A stretch of 64,000 nt of DNA from a bacterium (GTDB lineage: Bacteria > Zhuqueibacterota > Zhuqueibacteria > Residuimicrobiales > Krinioviventaceae). The position numbers and the translations under genes were made by a program. Within the stretch, counting starts at the first letter, position 1; each line of letters opens with the position of its first letter. Below are positions 1 to 6,671 of the stretch, piece by piece. The stretch is from positions 2,848,001 through 2,912,000 of the forward strand of contig CAXXMD010000003.1 in the NCBI GenBank assembly GCA_963675755.2. Direction: 5' to 3'. The notes below the pieces were generated by a model, which was not told the origin of the DNA, did not search any database, and saw nothing but the letters and a program-made list of their open reading frames with translations.

Positions 1-2672
1 ATGACCTGAAGCATGTTATTAAAATCATGGGCCACACCTCCGGCAAGCTGGCCAATGGCTTCCATCTTTTGGGATTGGCGGATTTGGCCCTCTAATTCCA
101 ATTCACGAGTAATATCATGATTTACGCTGACAAAGTTTGTAATATTACCATCTTCATCGCGGATTGGTGATATCTCTACTTCTTCTGTGTACAATGTACC
201 ATCTTTTTTCTTGTTTATGACCTGGGATTTCCAGATTTTACCGGATAAAATGGTGTTCCATAATGCCTCGTAATATTCAGGTTCATGTTCACCACTTTTT
301 AATATTCTTGGGTTTTGTCCAATTGCTTCTTTACGACTGAATCCGCTCGTTTTTTCAAATGCCGGATTCACATACTGCATGGTGCCTTCAATATCCGTAA
401 TAATGACAACTTCAGACGCTTGCTCAATTGCTCTGGCAAGGCGAGTATTTTCTTCAAGGGCTTTTTTCTGGGCGGAAATATCTACCAGTATACCATCAAC
501 ATAGTTTATAGTTGGTCCTTTTACCAATGTTGCCCAGATTTTGCAATACAGGGGAGTCCCATCTTTTTTCTTTAATGGCAGATCAAAGTTGTCTACCTTA
601 CCCTGCTCTATCAATAATTTGTTAAATTCTTTGAATTTTGATGGATCTAAATAGAAATTAGGTAACGGATTTCTTGCAAATTCTTCAAAGGTATCATAAC
701 CAAACATTTTGTAAACAGCAGGATTAGCGAGTATCATTCTCCCGTCTTCCTGGAATTGTCTGCGATAAATTCCAACGGGAAGTTGATTCAATAAGGAACG
801 GTATTTATTTTCACTTTCGAGTAATGCCTTTTCTGAAATTTTTCTTTCCGTTATATCTCTGGCAACAACTACGATACGATCAATTCCTGCAATATGAACT
901 TTTTTCATATTGACTTCAATCCAAAATATCTTGCCGGATTTGTGCTTTGCCTGCCATTCAAAAACAGATACTTCTTCACTTAATGCTTTCTTTAAAAGAA
1001 TTCCAGCTTCTTCAAGTGTATATGGTGGGACCCCTGAACTTATATCCTTGAGAGTGATGTTTTTAATTTCATCTTGTTCGAAACCATACATTTTACACAT
1101 GGTATCATTCACTGTAAGAATTTCGGCTGTATCAATATCGTGTATAAATACTGCATCACTAACACCATTAAAGATTGCTCTAAACTTTTCTTCACTTTCA
1201 CGCATATGTTGTTGTGCAAAATGTCTTGATTCTTCAACATTTAGTCCGGAAGAGATGATGCCCAACATATTTTTATCATAATCGTTTGGTTCGTATGGCT
1301 TGTTGTGAAAAACACATAAAATACCAACTTTTTCACCCCCTTGTTTAATGATGTGTCCAAAATAGGATTTGATGGATAGTTGGTGTATAATTGTATTTTC
1401 TATGTAATTTTGCGGATCAATTTCGGGAATGAATAACCAGTCTTTATTGCTGTTTGCAACCTGGCTGCATATACTACCTTCTAATCGGAATTTTAATGGA
1501 ATTGTTTTCGGGAGGTTCCAACTGCCAATTATTTCAAGTTGATCTTTATTAATGCGACTATAAATACAACAAGCTGCTCCAAGAATGTTTCCACAGAGTT
1601 CGGTTAGATTGTTAATATTTGCTTTAAAATCTGAGCTTGAATTGAGTAAAGTTTTGTTTATTGTTTCAAGACTTGCTGTAATTCTTTTTCTTTCCGAAAC
1701 ATCTCTTACAATGGCTAGGAGGAGTTTTTTGTCTGATATTGTTATCGAGTTCAGGCTTACTTCGGCAAAAAATGCTTTACCACCAAATGTTACATGAAGC
1801 CATTCAAAATATTGGGGTACACCGGCAAGTGCCTTTGTAACATTTTCTATTGATTTCTCTTTTGATTTATCGCCGTTGGGTTGATTATCCGGAGATAAAT
1901 CCCATGGATGCGCATCCAGAATTTGATCACGAGTACAATCAAACAATTCAAGAGTTTTTTGGTTGCAATCGATAAATTGATTTCCCTGCATGATTAAAAT
2001 TGCATCACTGGCATTTTCAATAAGCGATCTGTACAACTTTTCGCTCTCACGCAAGGCGGTTTCCTGTTTCTTTGTTTCCGTTATATCCCTTATTACACTG
2101 TGAATCTGGTCAAGTTCTCCTAAATTGTTCGTGCTGGGTCTGCTTTCCAATTCAATTATTAGAATATTTCCATTATTGCTACGAATTTCCAGTTCTGTTG
2201 TAATATTATCAATATTATTTTTTAGATTTTGGACATGTTGCTCTAGCAGTTTGATGGATTTTGAAGGGAGGAAGTCTGAAAAATGGCGTCCGATAACATC
2301 ATAACGGGTATATTCAAAGCTATCAAGCCAGGTATGATTTACATCAACAATAACTCCATTGGGGTCCATACTTTGATAGGCAATGGGTGCTTTTTCAAAC
2401 AGATCCTGAAATCTTAATTCACTGAATTTTAGTTTTTGAGCATAAATTTGTATACGCTTGAGTAATAATCCCGTGAGTAAACCTGCAGTGCCGCCAACCG
2501 TAATTGGTATAAGATACCATTTGGGCTCAATTGGTATTTTGAATAGAGTACGTTGCAAGGTAGCGATAACAGCCAAGATGATTGAACCAAGTAGGAAAGA
2601 AAAAATACCTCGTTTTATCCAGGGAAGCAGCGGATATAATGATTTTGAATTTTTGAGTGCATTTTGGTTCAT
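1..2672 (-). CDS. Membrane-anchored multi-PAS/GAF sensor histidine kinase (3' end beyond the window)
   Basis: Not in the ORF track because it runs off the edge. ATG at 2672 follows AGGAGA. Manual translation of sampled segments gives two N-terminal hydrophobic stretches, about 5 PAS-like domains, a GAF-like domain and the H-box [19 protein letters not shown] at 1-59 in the same frame as the ATG. Confidence 0.9.
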
Positions 2673-2856
2673 TGACTGTCTCCTGTTACAATAGAAATCT
2701 ATTATGTTCGATTGGAGGCCAATAAATTTTACAAGCAATTCCCATTATTGCATGTAAAGGTATGCCTTGCTATTTTTGTCCCATGGCCTTGTTATATAAT
2801 TATATGATTTTCTTTGATTGTGTGCAAGTTAAATGTTTGTTTTTTATAAAATATGC

Positions 2857-2889
2857 AACCATGTCCGGCAATTGGAGCCGGACATGGTT
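2857..2889 (-). terminator. Hairpin, probable terminator after the 103-aa gene
   Basis: Perfect 13-bp stem AACCATGTCCGGC/GCCGGACATGGTT with a 7-nt loop, just downstream of the stop at 2896. Confidence 0.65.
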
Positions 2890-2895
2890 TGCATT

Positions 2896-3207
2896 TCAGG
2901 ACGAAAACGCCTGATGTGCATCAATACAGCCAAGCTCTACAGCCTCCTGCAAAATATCAATGTGTCCCAATCGTTTGAAATAGAGGGACGCATAATTGCG
3001 CTGTACCAGGCTGCCTTGGAATAGATAGTAGCGAATTCTTGCACGGCCTTCCTGTGAGTCAACCAGTCCCAGCGCGTAATCAAGAATTTTATAGCTGCCA
3101 ATTCCCTTGGCGTCGTTCAGATACTGCATCAATATGTCAATATTTTCGGCAGTGCCTGATTTTGCTATCTGGCTGAGTTTGTCCATGGTTAACAGGTGGG
3201 TCGTCAT
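2896..3207 (-). CDS. Hypothetical protein, 103 aa, probably alpha-helical
   Basis: Strong RBS GGAGGT upstream of the ATG and a hairpin after the stop. No recognised family. Confidence 0.8.
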   Translation of the reverse strand: MTTHLLTMDKLSQIAKSGTAENIDILMQYLNDAKGIGSYKILDYALGLVDSQEGRARIRYYLFQGSLVQRNYASLYFKRLGHIDILQEAVELGCIDAHQAFSS

Positions 3208-3241
3208 TTTACCACCTCCCTTTCTTGAGTTAGGTTATATC

Positions 3242-3275
3242 AAAAAAAAAGCCCCGTTCTTTTCGGGAACGGGGC
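3242..3275 (-). terminator. Intrinsic terminator/attenuator of unit A
   Basis: mRNA reads GCCCCGUUC-CCGAAAA-GAACGGGGC followed by U9. Confidence 0.9.
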
Positions 3276-3299
3276 TTTAATGGATAGATAAAAGTGCCT

Positions 3300-3470
3300 T
3301 TACGGCCCCGTTTTGTTCATAATAGTATCAGTGCAATCAAAATCATCATTCATGGTATCTACAGCATAGAATACATCAAACGCATTGGAACAAACTGGCT
3401 GAGTTCCATTGCAGATGGCTTTATACATGATATCCATAATGTTGATGAAAATAGTTGATTTGTATTGCAT
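3300..3470 (-). CDS. Putative leader peptide A, 56 aa (MQYKSTIFINIMDIMYKAICNGTQPVCSNAFDVFYAVDTMNDDFDCTDTIMNKTGP)
   Basis: Manual translation (below the ORF-track cutoff). RBS AAGGA upstream, stop about 25 nt before the terminator stem, and similarity to peptide B. Confidence 0.7.
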   Translation of the reverse strand: MQYKSTIFINIMDIMYKAICNGTQPVCSNAFDVFYAVDTMNDDFDCTDTIMNKTGP

Positions 3471-3492
3471 GATTATTCCTTGTTTATAAATG

Positions 3493-3524
3493 AAAAAAGC
3501 CCCGCTCCTTATTGGGAACGAGGC
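3493..3524 (-). terminator. Intrinsic terminator/attenuator of unit B
   Basis: mRNA reads GCCUCGUUCC-CAAUAA-GGAGCGGGGC-U6. Its two G.U pairs form only on the minus-strand transcript. Confidence 0.88.
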
Positions 3525-3548
3525 TTTTTAAGTTTATTTATAAATCTT

Positions 3549-3662
3549 TTATTGCCTCAATCCCGACGGTGCATCATCATCAATATCAAAATCAACAACA
3601 TCAAAGCAGACCGGTGCCCAAGCTTTGATTATAATGTTGAGATATGTTGTTGTTGTTTTCAT
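3549..3662 (-). CDS. Putative leader peptide B, 37 aa (MKTTTTYLNIIIKAWAPVCFDVVDFDIDDDAPSGLRQ)
   Basis: Manual translation. AAGGA upstream, a promoter-like element upstream, and the stop about 25 nt before the terminator stem. Confidence 0.7.
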   Translation of the reverse strand: MKTTTTYLNIIIKAWAPVCFDVVDFDIDDDAPSGLRQ

Positions 3663-3699
3663 ATTGATTTTTTATTTCCTTAAAATTTAATGAGCAATA

Positions 3700-3727
3700 A
3701 ATATAGCATTTTTTCAGATTAATGCAA
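3700..3727 (-). promoter_or_regulatory. Putative sigma70 promoter for the leader-peptide units
   Basis: TTGCAT-16 nt-TATATT with an extended -10 TGn on the minus strand. Confidence 0.55.
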
Positions 3728-3739
3728 CAATTTTTTGTT

Positions 3740-6562
3740 TTATTTTAACAAAACCATCCTCTGAATGGATGAATATTTATCTGCTTTTATATTTAACCAA
3801 TAAATTCCGGAACTGACGGGTAAATTTGATTGATTGGTCCCGTTCCAGAAAAGTTGATGACTTCCCAAAGACATATTCCTGTTTATTAATTCTTTAACAA
3901 CTCTGCCATAAACATCATAAATTGTTAGTTTTACTTTTGCAGGTTTTGGCAGGTCAAAGCGGATGCTGGTTCCTGCATTAAATGGATTGGGAAAATTGGG
4001 GTAAAGTTGAAACTCAAGTGGCAGTTTTTCATTGCCATCATCAATTCCTGTACCTTTTTGTATAGAGAAATTAAAGGCTTGTTCGCATTCAGTCAAATGT
4101 CCGTCCAGGTCAATTGCAGTAACGTTCCATTGGTAGCTGTCACCTGCTAAAAGATTTGTATTGATCTGAAAAGAATTACCTACAACATATTGGTCAATAA
4201 TTACTGTTTCAATTCCTGTCATTTGTTTTACAACAAGATGATAAGTAATGTTATCACCGGGATCATTATCGTCGGCTTTTTCCCATTTTAATTCCGGAGT
4301 CAATGTAGAAAGGGTGCTTTTGTCTTCCGGTGACATGAGCCGAAAAGTATCAGGAGCCTGATTGTCGATAAACATTGCTCCCAGATCCCAATTGCCGGAT
4401 GTTTGACGTTCATTGCCATAATAATCGGTTGTAAACCAATCAAGTGCCGGGCCATTTTGGCGGGCAGGAGAAAGCGTTAACAGGTAAACGTCAGATACCA
4501 TGTTGGGCATATTGTTACCATATACTATTAATGGATCACCGTCGAGTGAACCTGATGCGTTAAGGGTATTGTTTTTATTGTCCCAATATTCCTGGAACAT
4601 CTCAATGGTTGTAAAATCTCGTTCATACGTGGGCAGTTCTTCATCGCGATAATGAATGATAGCATTGTTAACCGACAAAGGGCCCGTACCATATAAATTA
4701 TGATGCATAATATGTGAATGCCCGGCAACATCTGCAATGCTGAGCTGGAATTCGGCATTGTTGTAAATTATATTGCCTATAATGGTTTCAGCTTCAATCT
4801 GTCGGGACCCTGAAATTGTAGTTACCAAAGCCAGGCCGGCTTTGTAACCCGCATGCTCACTTGATCCATTTGCAATGATGGTATTATAAAGAACCTGGCA
4901 ATATTTACTTGCAGTAATGGCGATCCCCGCTCCTTCATTACCGAAACAGATATTATTATAAATCCAGGTGCTGTCTGCACCCTGATCAGCAATAATGCCA
5001 TTGCCGTCGCTCCACCAGTCGGCACCCACAGTGCCGGCAGTTCCCTGATTGTTATTACTGCTAACATTCCGCTTGACGATATTTCCTATACTTGATCCAT
5101 GAATGTTTATTCCACTGCATCCGCCATGCATCCAACCATTGTTCCAGACCGAGTTATGTTCAACAATATTGTGTGAGCCATTCACACTGATTCCCCAGGC
5201 ACCATTGTTCAGGCTTTGATTATGAGAAACACTACCTTCATTTGAATTGGATAACGAGATTCCCGAAGCACCGCAATCCTGGACCACATTGTTTTCAATA
5301 ACAATACCGGAAAGGGGAGAATCTTCCGAATATACATAAATACCATGTCCGGCACGACCGCCGTCTTTGGGATATTTGATCCATGAACTGTCGTATTCGG
5401 TTTTATCGATAGTAGCCGGGTAGCTGATTTTACTGATTGTATTTTCATTGATTGTTATGTCGTTTGTGTTTTGGACATGAATTGCAGAATAACTGTTTAC
5501 AATTTCAAAAGTCGATTCATCAGGATCACCTGAAATGTTATTAAGGATGATCTGGTTTCCGGAACCGGCATTTGTAACCGCAATATGTGAAGAATGTTGT
5601 TCAGTTGGGGAACCGTTTTCCCAAAATGTGCATGACTGAACAAGATTGTCTGTTGAATTGCTACCAATTATGGAAAGGGCTGATTCTCCCATATTATTGG
5701 AAAAATTGCAAATGTTAATTCTGGTTTTATTGGCATGACTTATTAAACAGCTAATCCCTGAATTGTTGCTAAAACTATTGTCAAAAACACTGTTTTCAAT
5801 GGGTATGGAATCCGATTCCTTGAGTTCATCCGGTTCGATGCCAATGGATAATGCAATGCCTGAAAGATTGGAAAATTCGTTATAGGAGATATCGGTAAAT
5901 GATGTTCGTGAACACCACACACCGCGTTCGGTTATGGTATCTGTCTGTGTTAAAGTATTCTGCAGGATGCGATTATAGTCTCCTGCCGTATCAAGGTAAA
6001 TATGGGCATCCCATATTCTTTCAGCATTACCCGTATTGGTAAAGGTGCATTCAGAGATTTCATTGTACGATGATGTGTTAAAAACATGGATTGCAGCAGA
6101 ACCTTGATTATCTGAAAATGTACAGTTGGTTATTTTATTATAATGCGAGTTATCAAGTAAAATAGGTTTACGATTTTCAGCACAGTTTGAAAATTCTAAA
6201 TTCTGTATATGAACAAAAGATACGCCTGTTAGATCCAGTGCGTATGTACCATCCCATGAATCCGCTGTCAGGATCGGTGTTTCGTTTTCGTAAGCCATGA
6301 TAACGATGGGATCAAGGGCGGTGCCAGATGCATGAACCTCTATTTTTTCAGAATAGGTGCCGTAACGAATGAAAAGCGTATCGCCGTGAACAAGGTATGG
6401 CACTGCATGAGATATTGTTTTGAACGGCCCATGATTGTCGGTTACAACCGGTGCAAGGCCATCAAAAGCATCGTTGCCACCGCTTTGAGCGACATACCAG
6501 GTTTCGGAATAGAGTGAGGCAGAAGAGATGAGCAGTAAAATGAGCAAGAATTGTTTTATCAT
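3740..6562 (-). CDS. Secreted right-handed parallel beta-helix protein with FN3-like domain and FlgD-Ig/T9SS-type CTD
   Basis: Signal peptide MIKQFLLILLLISSASLYS (start moved to 6562, RBS GGAAAGG). Contains WYVAQSGGND..GPFKTI, many Asn-ladder repeats and the C-terminal LYPNFPNPFN...SSGIY...RMVLLK. Confidence 0.85.
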   Translation of the reverse strand: MIKQFLLILLLISSASLYSETWYVAQSGGNDAFDGLAPVVTDNHGPFKTISHAVPYLVHGDTLFIRYGTYSEKIEVHASGTALDPIVIMAYENETPILTADSWDGTYALDLTGVSFVHIQNLEFSNCAENRKPILLDNSHYNKITNCTFSDNQGSAAIHVFNTSSYNEISECTFTNTGNAERIWDAHIYLDTAGDYNRILQNTLTQTDTITERGVWCSRTSFTDISYNEFSNLSGIALSIGIEPDELKESDSIPIENSVFDNSFSNNSGISCLISHANKTRINICNFSNNMGESALSIIGSNSTDNLVQSCTFWENGSPTEQHSSHIAVTNAGSGNQIILNNISGDPDESTFEIVNSYSAIHVQNTNDITINENTISKISYPATIDKTEYDSSWIKYPKDGGRAGHGIYVYSEDSPLSGIVIENNVVQDCGASGISLSNSNEGSVSHNQSLNNGAWGISVNGSHNIVEHNSVWNNGWMHGGCSGINIHGSSIGNIVKRNVSSNNNQGTAGTVGADWWSDGNGIIADQGADSTWIYNNICFGNEGAGIAITASKYCQVLYNTIIANGSSEHAGYKAGLALVTTISGSRQIEAETIIGNIIYNNAEFQLSIADVAGHSHIMHHNLYGTGPLSVNNAIIHYRDEELPTYERDFTTIEMFQEYWDNKNNTLNASGSLDGDPLIVYGNNMPNMVSDVYLLTLSPARQNGPALDWFTTDYYGNERQTSGNWDLGAMFIDNQAPDTFRLMSPEDKSTLSTLTPELKWEKADDNDPGDNITYHLVVKQMTGIETVIIDQYVVGNSFQINTNLLAGDSYQWNVTAIDLDGHLTECEQAFNFSIQKGTGIDDGNEKLPLEFQLYPNFPNPFNAGTSIRFDLPKPAKVKLTIYDVYGRVVKELINRNMSLGSHQLFWNGTNQSNLPVSSGIYWLNIKADKYSSIQRMVLLK

Positions 6563-6596
6563 GGTTCCTTTCCGGTAATAGTTAATGCTGATAGTA

Positions 6597-6612
6597 TACA
6601 AATTGTGTGCCA
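6597..6612 (-). promoter_or_regulatory. Possible sigma54 -24/-12 promoter
   Basis: TGGCAC-ACAAT-TTGTA, one mismatch to TGGCAC-N5-TTGCW, 35 nt upstream of the beta-helix gene start. Confidence 0.4.
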
Positions 6613-6671
6613 AATTCCAAATGTTAAAGTGTTGTGAAAATGAAACATTTTTATTATACTGTCGTATATTT

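Follow-up and report, generated by a model that had tools for sequence, protein, structure and literature searches.

The region described here lies on a 64,000-nucleotide (nt) stretch of a Zhuqueibacterota genome (contig CAXXMD010000003.1 of assembly GCA_963675755.2; the whole stretch is referred to as the window), and consists of two small open reading frames (sORFs), each followed by an intrinsic terminator, in front of a gene for a 103 amino acid (aa) protein. All positions are those of the window and all features are on its minus strand. The region opens with a promoter-like site at 3700-3727 (TTGCAT, 16 nt, TATATT), which was recognized by eye and presumably drives the leaders; it has a TG two bases before the -10 and would belong to the extended -10 type. 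Leader ORF B comes first (37 aa, 3549-3662). It contains an Asp-rich stretch at 3573-3602 with six GAT codons within codons 21-30, a candidate slow or stall site, and then the antiterminator B segment (3554-3564), the pairing partner of the 5' arm of terminator B (3493-3529; a scan call with a 15-pair stem and a 6-nt loop at 3494-3529 and a T6 tail). Leader ORF A (56 aa, 3300-3470) starts 28 nt past the T run of terminator B with an AAGGAA ribosome-binding site in front, and presents the same order of elements: an Asp/Cys-rich stretch at 3327-3359 (codons 38-48, with five GAT and the dipeptide Asp45-Cys46) as the second candidate slow or stall site, the antiterminator A segment (3305-3312), and terminator A (3242-3278; also a scan call, with a 12-pair stem and a 7-nt loop at 3248-3278 and a T9 tail), with the 5' arm of which antiterminator A pairs. 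The positions that the original prediction, made from the letters of the window, had given for the sORFs, terminators and antiterminators hold on this strand. The regulated gene (2896-3207) begins 35 nt past terminator A behind a strong GGGAGGTGG ribosome-binding site, and its unit is closed by a further terminator found by the scan at 2857-2889. Terminator scanning of positions 2500-4500 detected seven terminator-like sites versus 1.8 expected from shuffles, both leader terminators being among the calls. The consensus scan listed no promoter-like site between units A and B or before the 103-aa gene, and as far as can be read from the sequence the gene would therefore be transcribed only by readthrough of both terminators.

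In each sORF, the final codons can base-pair with the 5' arm of the following terminator. Antiterminator B covers 11 nt and forms 10 pairs, including one G.U, plus one U.U mismatch (-14.5 kcal/mol); antiterminator A forms 8/8 perfect pairs (-15.9 kcal/mol), and each of the two ends 2 nt ahead of the stop codon of its sORF. Shuffled upstream sequence matched the observed duplex energy in 5/500 trials for B and 1/500 for A, and for each of nine units tested from the phylum the observed energy was attained in 0-10/500 shuffles. A genome-wide control was provided by 511 strictly defined terminators of the 6.48-Mb genome, the 5' arms of which were scored against the 15-70 nt upstream. Unit A ranked second and unit B third in this set, where just 3/511 terminators attain -14.5 kcal/mol. 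The pairing between the last codons of the sORFs and the following 5' arms is not a matter of chance. The two leaders have diverged considerably from each other (BLASTP E-value = 0.035), no paralogue of peptide A or B was found elsewhere in their own genome, and neither peptide matched Pfam or NCBIfam. Rfam returned no family, Phe_leader (RF01859) included, at the gathering score for the window region, the best match being Thr_leader (RF00506) with 27.8 bits against a threshold of 55, and gave 0 matches at the gathering score for 10 related loci.

The 103-aa gene was detected in 6/167 genomes searched of the same phylum, and in 5/41 of the nearest genomes, own genome counted. At least one unit composed of a sORF and a terminator is established upstream of the gene in 6/6 of the carriers in the phylum; there are two units in G000 (the genome of the window), G001 (its sister genome), G005, G014 and G079, and one in G022. 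All six retain ORFs with a length of 27-56 codons. The stop codon lies 1-4 nt past the antiterminator or overlaps it in 10/10 homologous units, and the spacer between antiterminator and arm measures 29-37 nt in the nine units for which it was determined, with no conservation of its sequence. A riboswitch or aptamer residing in the spacer was rejected on account of this lack of conservation. When 10 units were aligned on the antiterminator (alignment A6), 81.4% of the cells of the antiterminator helix were paired and changes on both sides were seen in 4/12 pairs, e.g., A-U in six units versus G-C in four. The covariation score was attained by 0/500 shuffles, and sliding the partner by 1-3 columns left a pairing of 31-52%. 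Comparison of G000 with G001 (88% identity by BLAST) showed no change in the two antiterminators or in any of the four stem arms, in contrast to the loops and spacers, which have changed. Two indels within sORF A are 3 and 9 nt long and keep the frame, and four indels outside the ORFs are 1-2 nt long. Leader B differs in 3/37 residues without any indel and leader A carries many substitutions; the 103-aa protein is 98% identical between the two genomes. This is the pattern that would be expected of translated leaders in which RNA pairing and reading frame outweigh the peptide. As a separate observation, the ORF of the second unit in G079 (L113 1830-2000, minus strand) runs through a terminator-like hairpin into the ribosome-binding site of the gene, and this unit looks like a decayed or degenerate attenuator.

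Folding was modelled with a 28-nt stretch kept unpaired as a stand-in for the ribosome. As long as the 3' arm of the terminator is absent, the predicted probability of the helix between antiterminator and 5' arm is 0.89 for B and 0.97 for A, both without a ribosome and with a ribosome placed in the Asp stretch, and it drops to 0.00 in both units when the stop codon occupies the A site. Antiterminator B stays free when the ribosome is modelled with codon 28 of leader B in the P site. The same helix reaches 0.90-1.00 in 6/7 homologous units, where pairing of the antiterminator with upstream sequence is 0.00. These folds showed no anti-antiterminator (segment 1) able to sequester the antiterminator without a ribosome in units A and B or in 6/7 of the homologous units. 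The genome's own his leader, located upstream of hisG-hisD-hisC (contig C2 757571-758696, minus strand; locus L192 2572-3697) and ranked 7th of 511 for pairing, behaves differently. Its 15-aa peptide has His at six of seven successive codons, and an antiterminator 3 nt past the stop and a terminator come next; in the absence of a ribosome the antiterminator is predicted to be held by the segment of the His codons (antiterminator:arm 0.00), and with a ribosome on the His codons the value rises to 1.00. In these models the his leader is a true four-segment attenuator, which indicates that the organism uses leader-peptide attenuation, and units A and B are predicted to be two-state devices that have no first segment. 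Since no segment sequesters the antiterminator, only a ribosome at the stop codon would let the terminator form, and any failure of leader translation, including failed initiation, should open the gate.

We consider it probable that the locus comprises two serial ribosome-dependent transcription attenuators which control the monocistronic gene of a 103-aa HEAT-like protein. Transcription would start at about position 3693, and each leader RNA could adopt two alternative structures, namely the antiterminator paired with the 5' arm, which is about 30 nt downstream, or the terminator hairpin. We infer from the reading frames that the sORFs are translated; a ribosome reaching the stop codon in step with the RNA polymerase would cover the antiterminator, so that the terminator forms and the transcript ends. 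A ribosome that lags, stalls, drops off or never starts would leave the antiterminator free to capture the emerging 5' arm, with readthrough as a result, and the 103-aa protein would be made only when both gates are open. Such a device would report the pace of leader translation and not the charging of one tRNA alone. The Asp-rich or Asp-Cys codons 8-24 nt before the antiterminator are likely to act as a programmed slow point, which would bias the sensor to whatever slows decoding or peptide-bond formation at those codons. The serial double gate and the geometry of ribosome-dependent attenuation put forward in the original prediction hold, with the stop codons on or beside the antiterminator in 10/10 units and no promoter-like site listed between the units in the consensus scan. 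Two checks it had suggested came out in the same direction: in the folds with and without ribosome-covered bases, a ribosome at the stop abolishes the antiterminator helix before the 3' arm exists, and the alternative between antiterminator and terminator is conserved in related genomes with compensatory changes. The likeness it had drawn to trpL, hisL and thrL extends to the leader ORF, the terminator and the ribosome-masked antiterminator, but not to the anti-antiterminator segment, which is absent.

Several points weigh against this interpretation or limit it. The sigma70-like promoter at 3700-3727, also part of the original prediction, is visible by eye and unchanged in G001; however, its -35 matches the consensus at 3/6 positions and the consensus scan did not list the site. 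The ribosome-binding site of sORF B is 14 nt away from the ATG. Full transcripts folded at equilibrium give a terminator probability of approximately 1.0 in every modelled state, and antitermination must therefore be a kinetic race, as we assume by analogy with the classical attenuators. The two-state description is not uniform, with G022 presenting an antiterminator:arm probability of 0.40 and 0.59 of the antiterminator paired upstream. The compensatory changes fall into two sequence classes, which implies few independent events. Finally, in the related leaders of Chloroflexota the duplex test was equalled by 2-261/500 shuffles and gave inconsistent antiterminator positions.

These Chloroflexota leaders belong to a wider collection. 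We examined the homologues of the 103-aa gene for which 250 nt or more of upstream DNA was available (147 loci), and peptide content played no part in the selection. In 62 of these loci a small ORF is followed by a terminator, which gives 74 units and 45 distinct sORFs; this list still contains some wrong frames and some ends of genes located upstream. Leaders of like kind precede the gene homologues in Chloroflexota genomes and in metagenome contigs; for the Chloroflexota leaders, RNAalifold recovered only the terminator and one small hairpin. The dipeptide Asp-Cys is present in 24/45 of the distinct upstream sORFs, from several phyla, with Asp in 44/45 and Cys in 42/45. It is usually located behind a hydrophobic stretch and a Ser and ahead of an acidic residue. 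A variant core, Cys-Phe-Ser-Asp-Ser-Asp, is resembled by leader B, and leader A has the Asp-Cys form. The Asp-Cys core occurs with quite different terminators and at 37-70% GC, including the 37%-GC contig L151. In loci with a gene GC of at least 0.55, the 33 motif contexts use GAT 30 times and GAC three times for Asp, and TGT 29 times and TGC four times for Cys, counts that overstate independence as the sequences behind them are related. The adjacent genes of the same loci use GAC 202 times and GAT 54 times, and TGC five times and TGT once. The conserved element would then be GAU-UGU, two wobble-decoded codons apparently held against codon bias, and to judge from these codon counts a pure peptide signal explains such retention less well than a programmed slow-decoding or stall site or a motif at the RNA level.

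The product of the regulated gene is predicted to be an all-helical HEAT/ARM-like repeat protein. Its AlphaFold model (predicted local distance difference test, pLDDT, 88.2) consists of seven helices in hairpins. Foldseek gave no match to this model at E ≤ 0.001; the VIA wide search placed generic helical-repeat (alpha-solenoid) proteins on top with a best Z of 6.9, and the language-model neighbours were clusters annotated as "hypothetical" and HEAT_2. No family was assigned by Pfam, NCBIfam or PADLOC, and at a Pfam E-value of up to 1 only a chance-level match to SoFic-like_C appeared, in agreement with the earlier remark that the target has no recognizable biosynthetic identity. An exhaustive search led to 124 representatives of the gene family at E ≤ 1e-3, whereas a word-index protein search found just two members. 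The family ranges over Chloroflexota, Nostoc-type cyanobacteria, Pyrinomonadaceae and Bacteroidota. The domain also occurs in longer proteins, on the C-terminal side of GNAT, TIR, alpha/beta hydrolase, Ser/Thr kinase, caspase and KAP NTPase modules (P0017, P0026, P0030, P0032, P0037, P0058, P0060, P0063, P0064 and P0073). Several of the partner modules match PADLOC defence models (ThsB-like TIR, caspase, QatA/PifA-like and PD-T4-6-like). The set of partners recalls the conflict systems of multicellular prokaryotes portrayed in PMC7159879. The downstream neighbours of the gene vary and include a PAS kinase, MFS transporters (two), a creatininase, an ABC ATPase, an alpha/beta hydrolase, methyltransferases (four) and aspartate-semialdehyde dehydrogenases (two). 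No match to the 103-aa gene was obtained by tblastn in the plasmid and phage collections. In sum, the gene is an accessory unit under tight regulation, and its sequence and domain context suggest no link to Asp metabolism or amino-acid biosynthesis.

With regard to the signal, the original prediction had proposed an attenuator specific for Asp-tRNA, in which scarce charged tRNA-Asp would stall the ribosome on the GAT cluster and open both gates, so that the 103-aa protein would follow the aspartate supply. All Asp codons of the leaders are indeed GAT (6/6 in B and 7/7 in A), and their density of six in 10 codons in B and five in 11 in A compares with 6.4% genome-wide. In 10/10 units the antiterminator is preceded, at a distance of 8-24 nt, by the end of an Asp codon. 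This position suits a stall that leaves the antiterminator exposed and corresponds to that of the His codons in the his leader of the genome; the distance of 9-13 nt originally given is corrected by measurement to 8 nt for B and 14 nt for A. The retention of GAT in 30/33 motif contexts of the GC-rich relatives, against the preference for GAC in the neighbouring genes, and the aspartate-semialdehyde dehydrogenase gene downstream in two Chloroflexota loci point in the same direction. However, runs of Asp are confined to the genus of the window (g1): the g5 leaders hold two Asp in the first unit and a single one near the antiterminator in the second, and those of Chloroflexota one Asp and one Asp/Glu. 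Moreover, the conserved neighbouring residue is Cys, GAT is the ordinary Asp codon of this genome (75%), and tRNA-Asp is an ordinary single-copy gene like each elongator species among the 44 tRNA genes detected by aragorn (tRNA-SeC is present as well). No segment pairs the Asp codons with the antiterminator, so the switch is not specific by design, and the regulated gene, with its varying neighbours, is unlinked to Asp metabolism. We consider this specific reading unlikely, and aspartate sensing as such is only partly supported. An arrest-peptide sensor is a tentative and rather unlikely possibility. Its conserved core, composed of a hydrophobic stretch, then Ser-Asp-Cys or Cys-Phe-Asp and then acidic residues, would cause the ribosome to stall only when some agent is present, perhaps a ribosome-targeting compound, a metabolite or an ion (compare the erm, cat and bmrB leaders, TnaC and MgtL), and readthrough would induce a factor related to stress or defence. 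The spread of Asp-Cys over several phyla, with differing terminators and GC contents, speaks for such a sensor. So do the fusion of the regulated domain elsewhere to TIR, caspase, KAP NTPase, kinase, GNAT and alpha/beta-hydrolase modules, the PadR or cyclic-nucleotide-binding (cNMP-binding) regulators in front of the gene at leaderless loci, and the frequent presence of MFS, ABC and methyltransferase genes as neighbours. Published leaders stall at Asp, such as ermBL at codon 10 (PMC8274638), and another report describes the destabilization of ribosomes by acidic nascent chains (bioRxiv 10.1101/2021.02.02.429294). On the other hand, the distance between core and antiterminator ranges from 2 to 78 nt among the units of the phylum, leader B does not contain the Asp-Cys dipeptide, and the loci examined yielded neither a ligand nor a resistance gene nor a consistent partner. 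The conservation of GAT-TGT at the level of codons may also reflect decoding or the RNA rather than the peptide alone.

The products of the sORFs could also act by themselves, either as ligands of the helical-repeat protein or as modified peptides, the terminators merely setting the ratio of peptide to downstream mRNA. Terminators behind precursor-peptide genes are known in lantibiotic operons, and this idea is favoured by the conservation of the peptide core across phyla and by the fact that ARM/HEAT-like proteins commonly bind extended peptides, the peptide complexes retrieved in our fold searches being designed repeat proteins only, with non-significant scores. We nevertheless regard it as very unlikely: the C-terminal residues are dictated by the antiterminator sequence and change with it, leader A evolves fast next to a protein that is nearly invariant between G000 and G001, and neither a signal peptide nor a maturation enzyme or transporter recurs in the vicinity. 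Furthermore, it leaves unexplained why the antiterminator pairing is conserved at the stop codon. The least probable alternative, with hardly any credence on our part, is that the ORFs are untranslated and that the region is either an RNA responsive to a protein or a ligand, or a pair of terminators with chance complementarity. In its favour are weak sub-threshold Rfam matches, driven by the terminators. Against this stand the ORFs kept in every phylum genome that carries the gene, their stop codons fixed relative to the antiterminator, the frame-preserving indels, and the genome-wide test of chance pairing, in which the two units ranked second and third of 511.

The two serial attenuators that we favour are closest in layout to the genome's own hisL. 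Both consist of a short ORF, an antiterminator beside the stop codon that a ribosome at the stop would mask, an intrinsic terminator and, between the last two, a spacer about 35 nt long, and in both the regulatory codons are situated just upstream of the antiterminator. They differ in the segment of His codons, which holds the antiterminator of hisL as long as the leader is free of ribosomes (antiterminator:arm 0.00 versus 0.97 for A and 0.89 for B in the model folds), in the biosynthetic target of hisL as opposed to the non-biosynthetic target here, and in the tandem duplication of A and B. With respect to the classical trpL, hisL and thrL leaders, units A and B share the leader ORF, the terminator and the ribosome-masked antiterminator and have no anti-antiterminator. 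Tandem riboswitches and T-boxes likewise place two terminator gates in series before one gene, an arrangement expected to give a sharper response and lower leakage; gates A and B differ from them by depending on leader peptides and ribosomes and not on the binding of a ligand or a tRNA. In logic, the closest systems are bmrB-bmrCD, mef/mel and the whiB7 uORF, in which readthrough of an intrinsic terminator reportedly results when the ribosome slows or stalls on the leader ORF in front of it (PMC4191407, PMC4335068, PMC10274678). Further shared features are a non-biosynthetic output gene and a conserved motif in the leader peptide. The differences are the 103-aa helical-repeat product, the Asp-Cys core and the occurrence of the leaders across the KSB1 lineage and Chloroflexota. 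By analogy with mgtL and acidic nascent chains, the acidic stretch of the leaders could abort or slow translation and in this way free the antiterminator, but it is located 21-48 residues into the peptide and no Mg2+ transporter is regulated. The preprint on acidic nascent chains also reports that a nascent chain in the tunnel stabilizes the ribosome (bioRxiv 10.1101/2021.02.02.429294). No published description of these leaders was found in the literature searched, supplementary files excepted, and we read them as a variant of leader-peptide transcription attenuation.

Leader-peptide attenuation is a textbook mechanism, yet nearly all known examples come either from amino-acid operons of Proteobacteria or from a few drug-resistance genes of Firmicutes and Actinobacteria. 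The leaders presented here are from an uncultured KSB1-type lineage, with a related form in Chloroflexota; they are characterized by a conserved core and not by a codon run, have no anti-antiterminator, and control a gene without a tie to amino-acid supply. If the two-state reading is true, the terminators would work only under healthy translation, which would make each unit a simple and portable sensor of translation failure, and loss of the start codon should raise readthrough, as opposed to lowering it in classical attenuators. The retention of GAT-TGT against a strong GC bias offers a concrete handle on the signal that is sensed. The locus also provides a first regulatory context for a small helical-repeat domain that is common to defence-type multidomain proteins. 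A more far-reaching interpretation, which we put forward as speculation and regard as quite unlikely, is that the leader is a member of an ancient, undescribed family of translation-surveillance switches moving between phyla. Here GAU-UGU would serve as a slow or arrest site within a two-state attenuator, and firing when the leader ribosome misses the stop codon would turn on a free-standing copy of the helical-repeat adaptor domain, which in other organisms is found at the C terminus of conflict-system proteins (TIR, caspase, KAP NTPase, kinase). If true, the causes may be a ribosome-targeting compound, damaged or under-modified wobble-decoding tRNAs (e.g., tRNA-Asp) or phage shut-off, and the tandem duplication and expansion of Asp codons in the genus would tune threshold and leakiness.

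Some further features were noted in the wider set of loci. The leader ORF of Chloroflexota (alignment A7, e.g., L084 246-403) starts a few bases past the -10 of a promoter of the TTGACA/TATAAT type and is nearly leaderless. Many of the Chloroflexota leader peptides end in Cys right before the stop codon, and AGGAGG is found inside the ORF. Among the loci without a leader, the gene is located directly behind a cNMP-binding Crp-type regulator in four (L044, L085, L090 and L092, at about 1390-1500), where a palindrome resembling TGA-N6-TCA is present in the gap between regulator and gene, and directly behind a PadR regulator in three (L045, L062 and L089). Taken with the leaders, these arrangements place one gene under three unrelated controls in different lineages. 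The aspartate-semialdehyde dehydrogenase genes mentioned above are positioned 190-360 nt downstream on the same strand in two loci of the Promineifilum type (L074 2147-3256 and L078 1974-3191), which could be a coincidence. In the window itself, the scan detected a separate promoter-like site (2799-2826) for the PAS histidine-kinase gene that lies downstream of the 103-aa gene. Upstream, a beta-helix gene with a type IX secretion system (T9SS) sorting signal spans 3740-6613 on the minus strand, ending at 3740, and a terminator-like hairpin at 3754-3772 on the same strand overlaps its last codons, separating this gene from the leader promoter.

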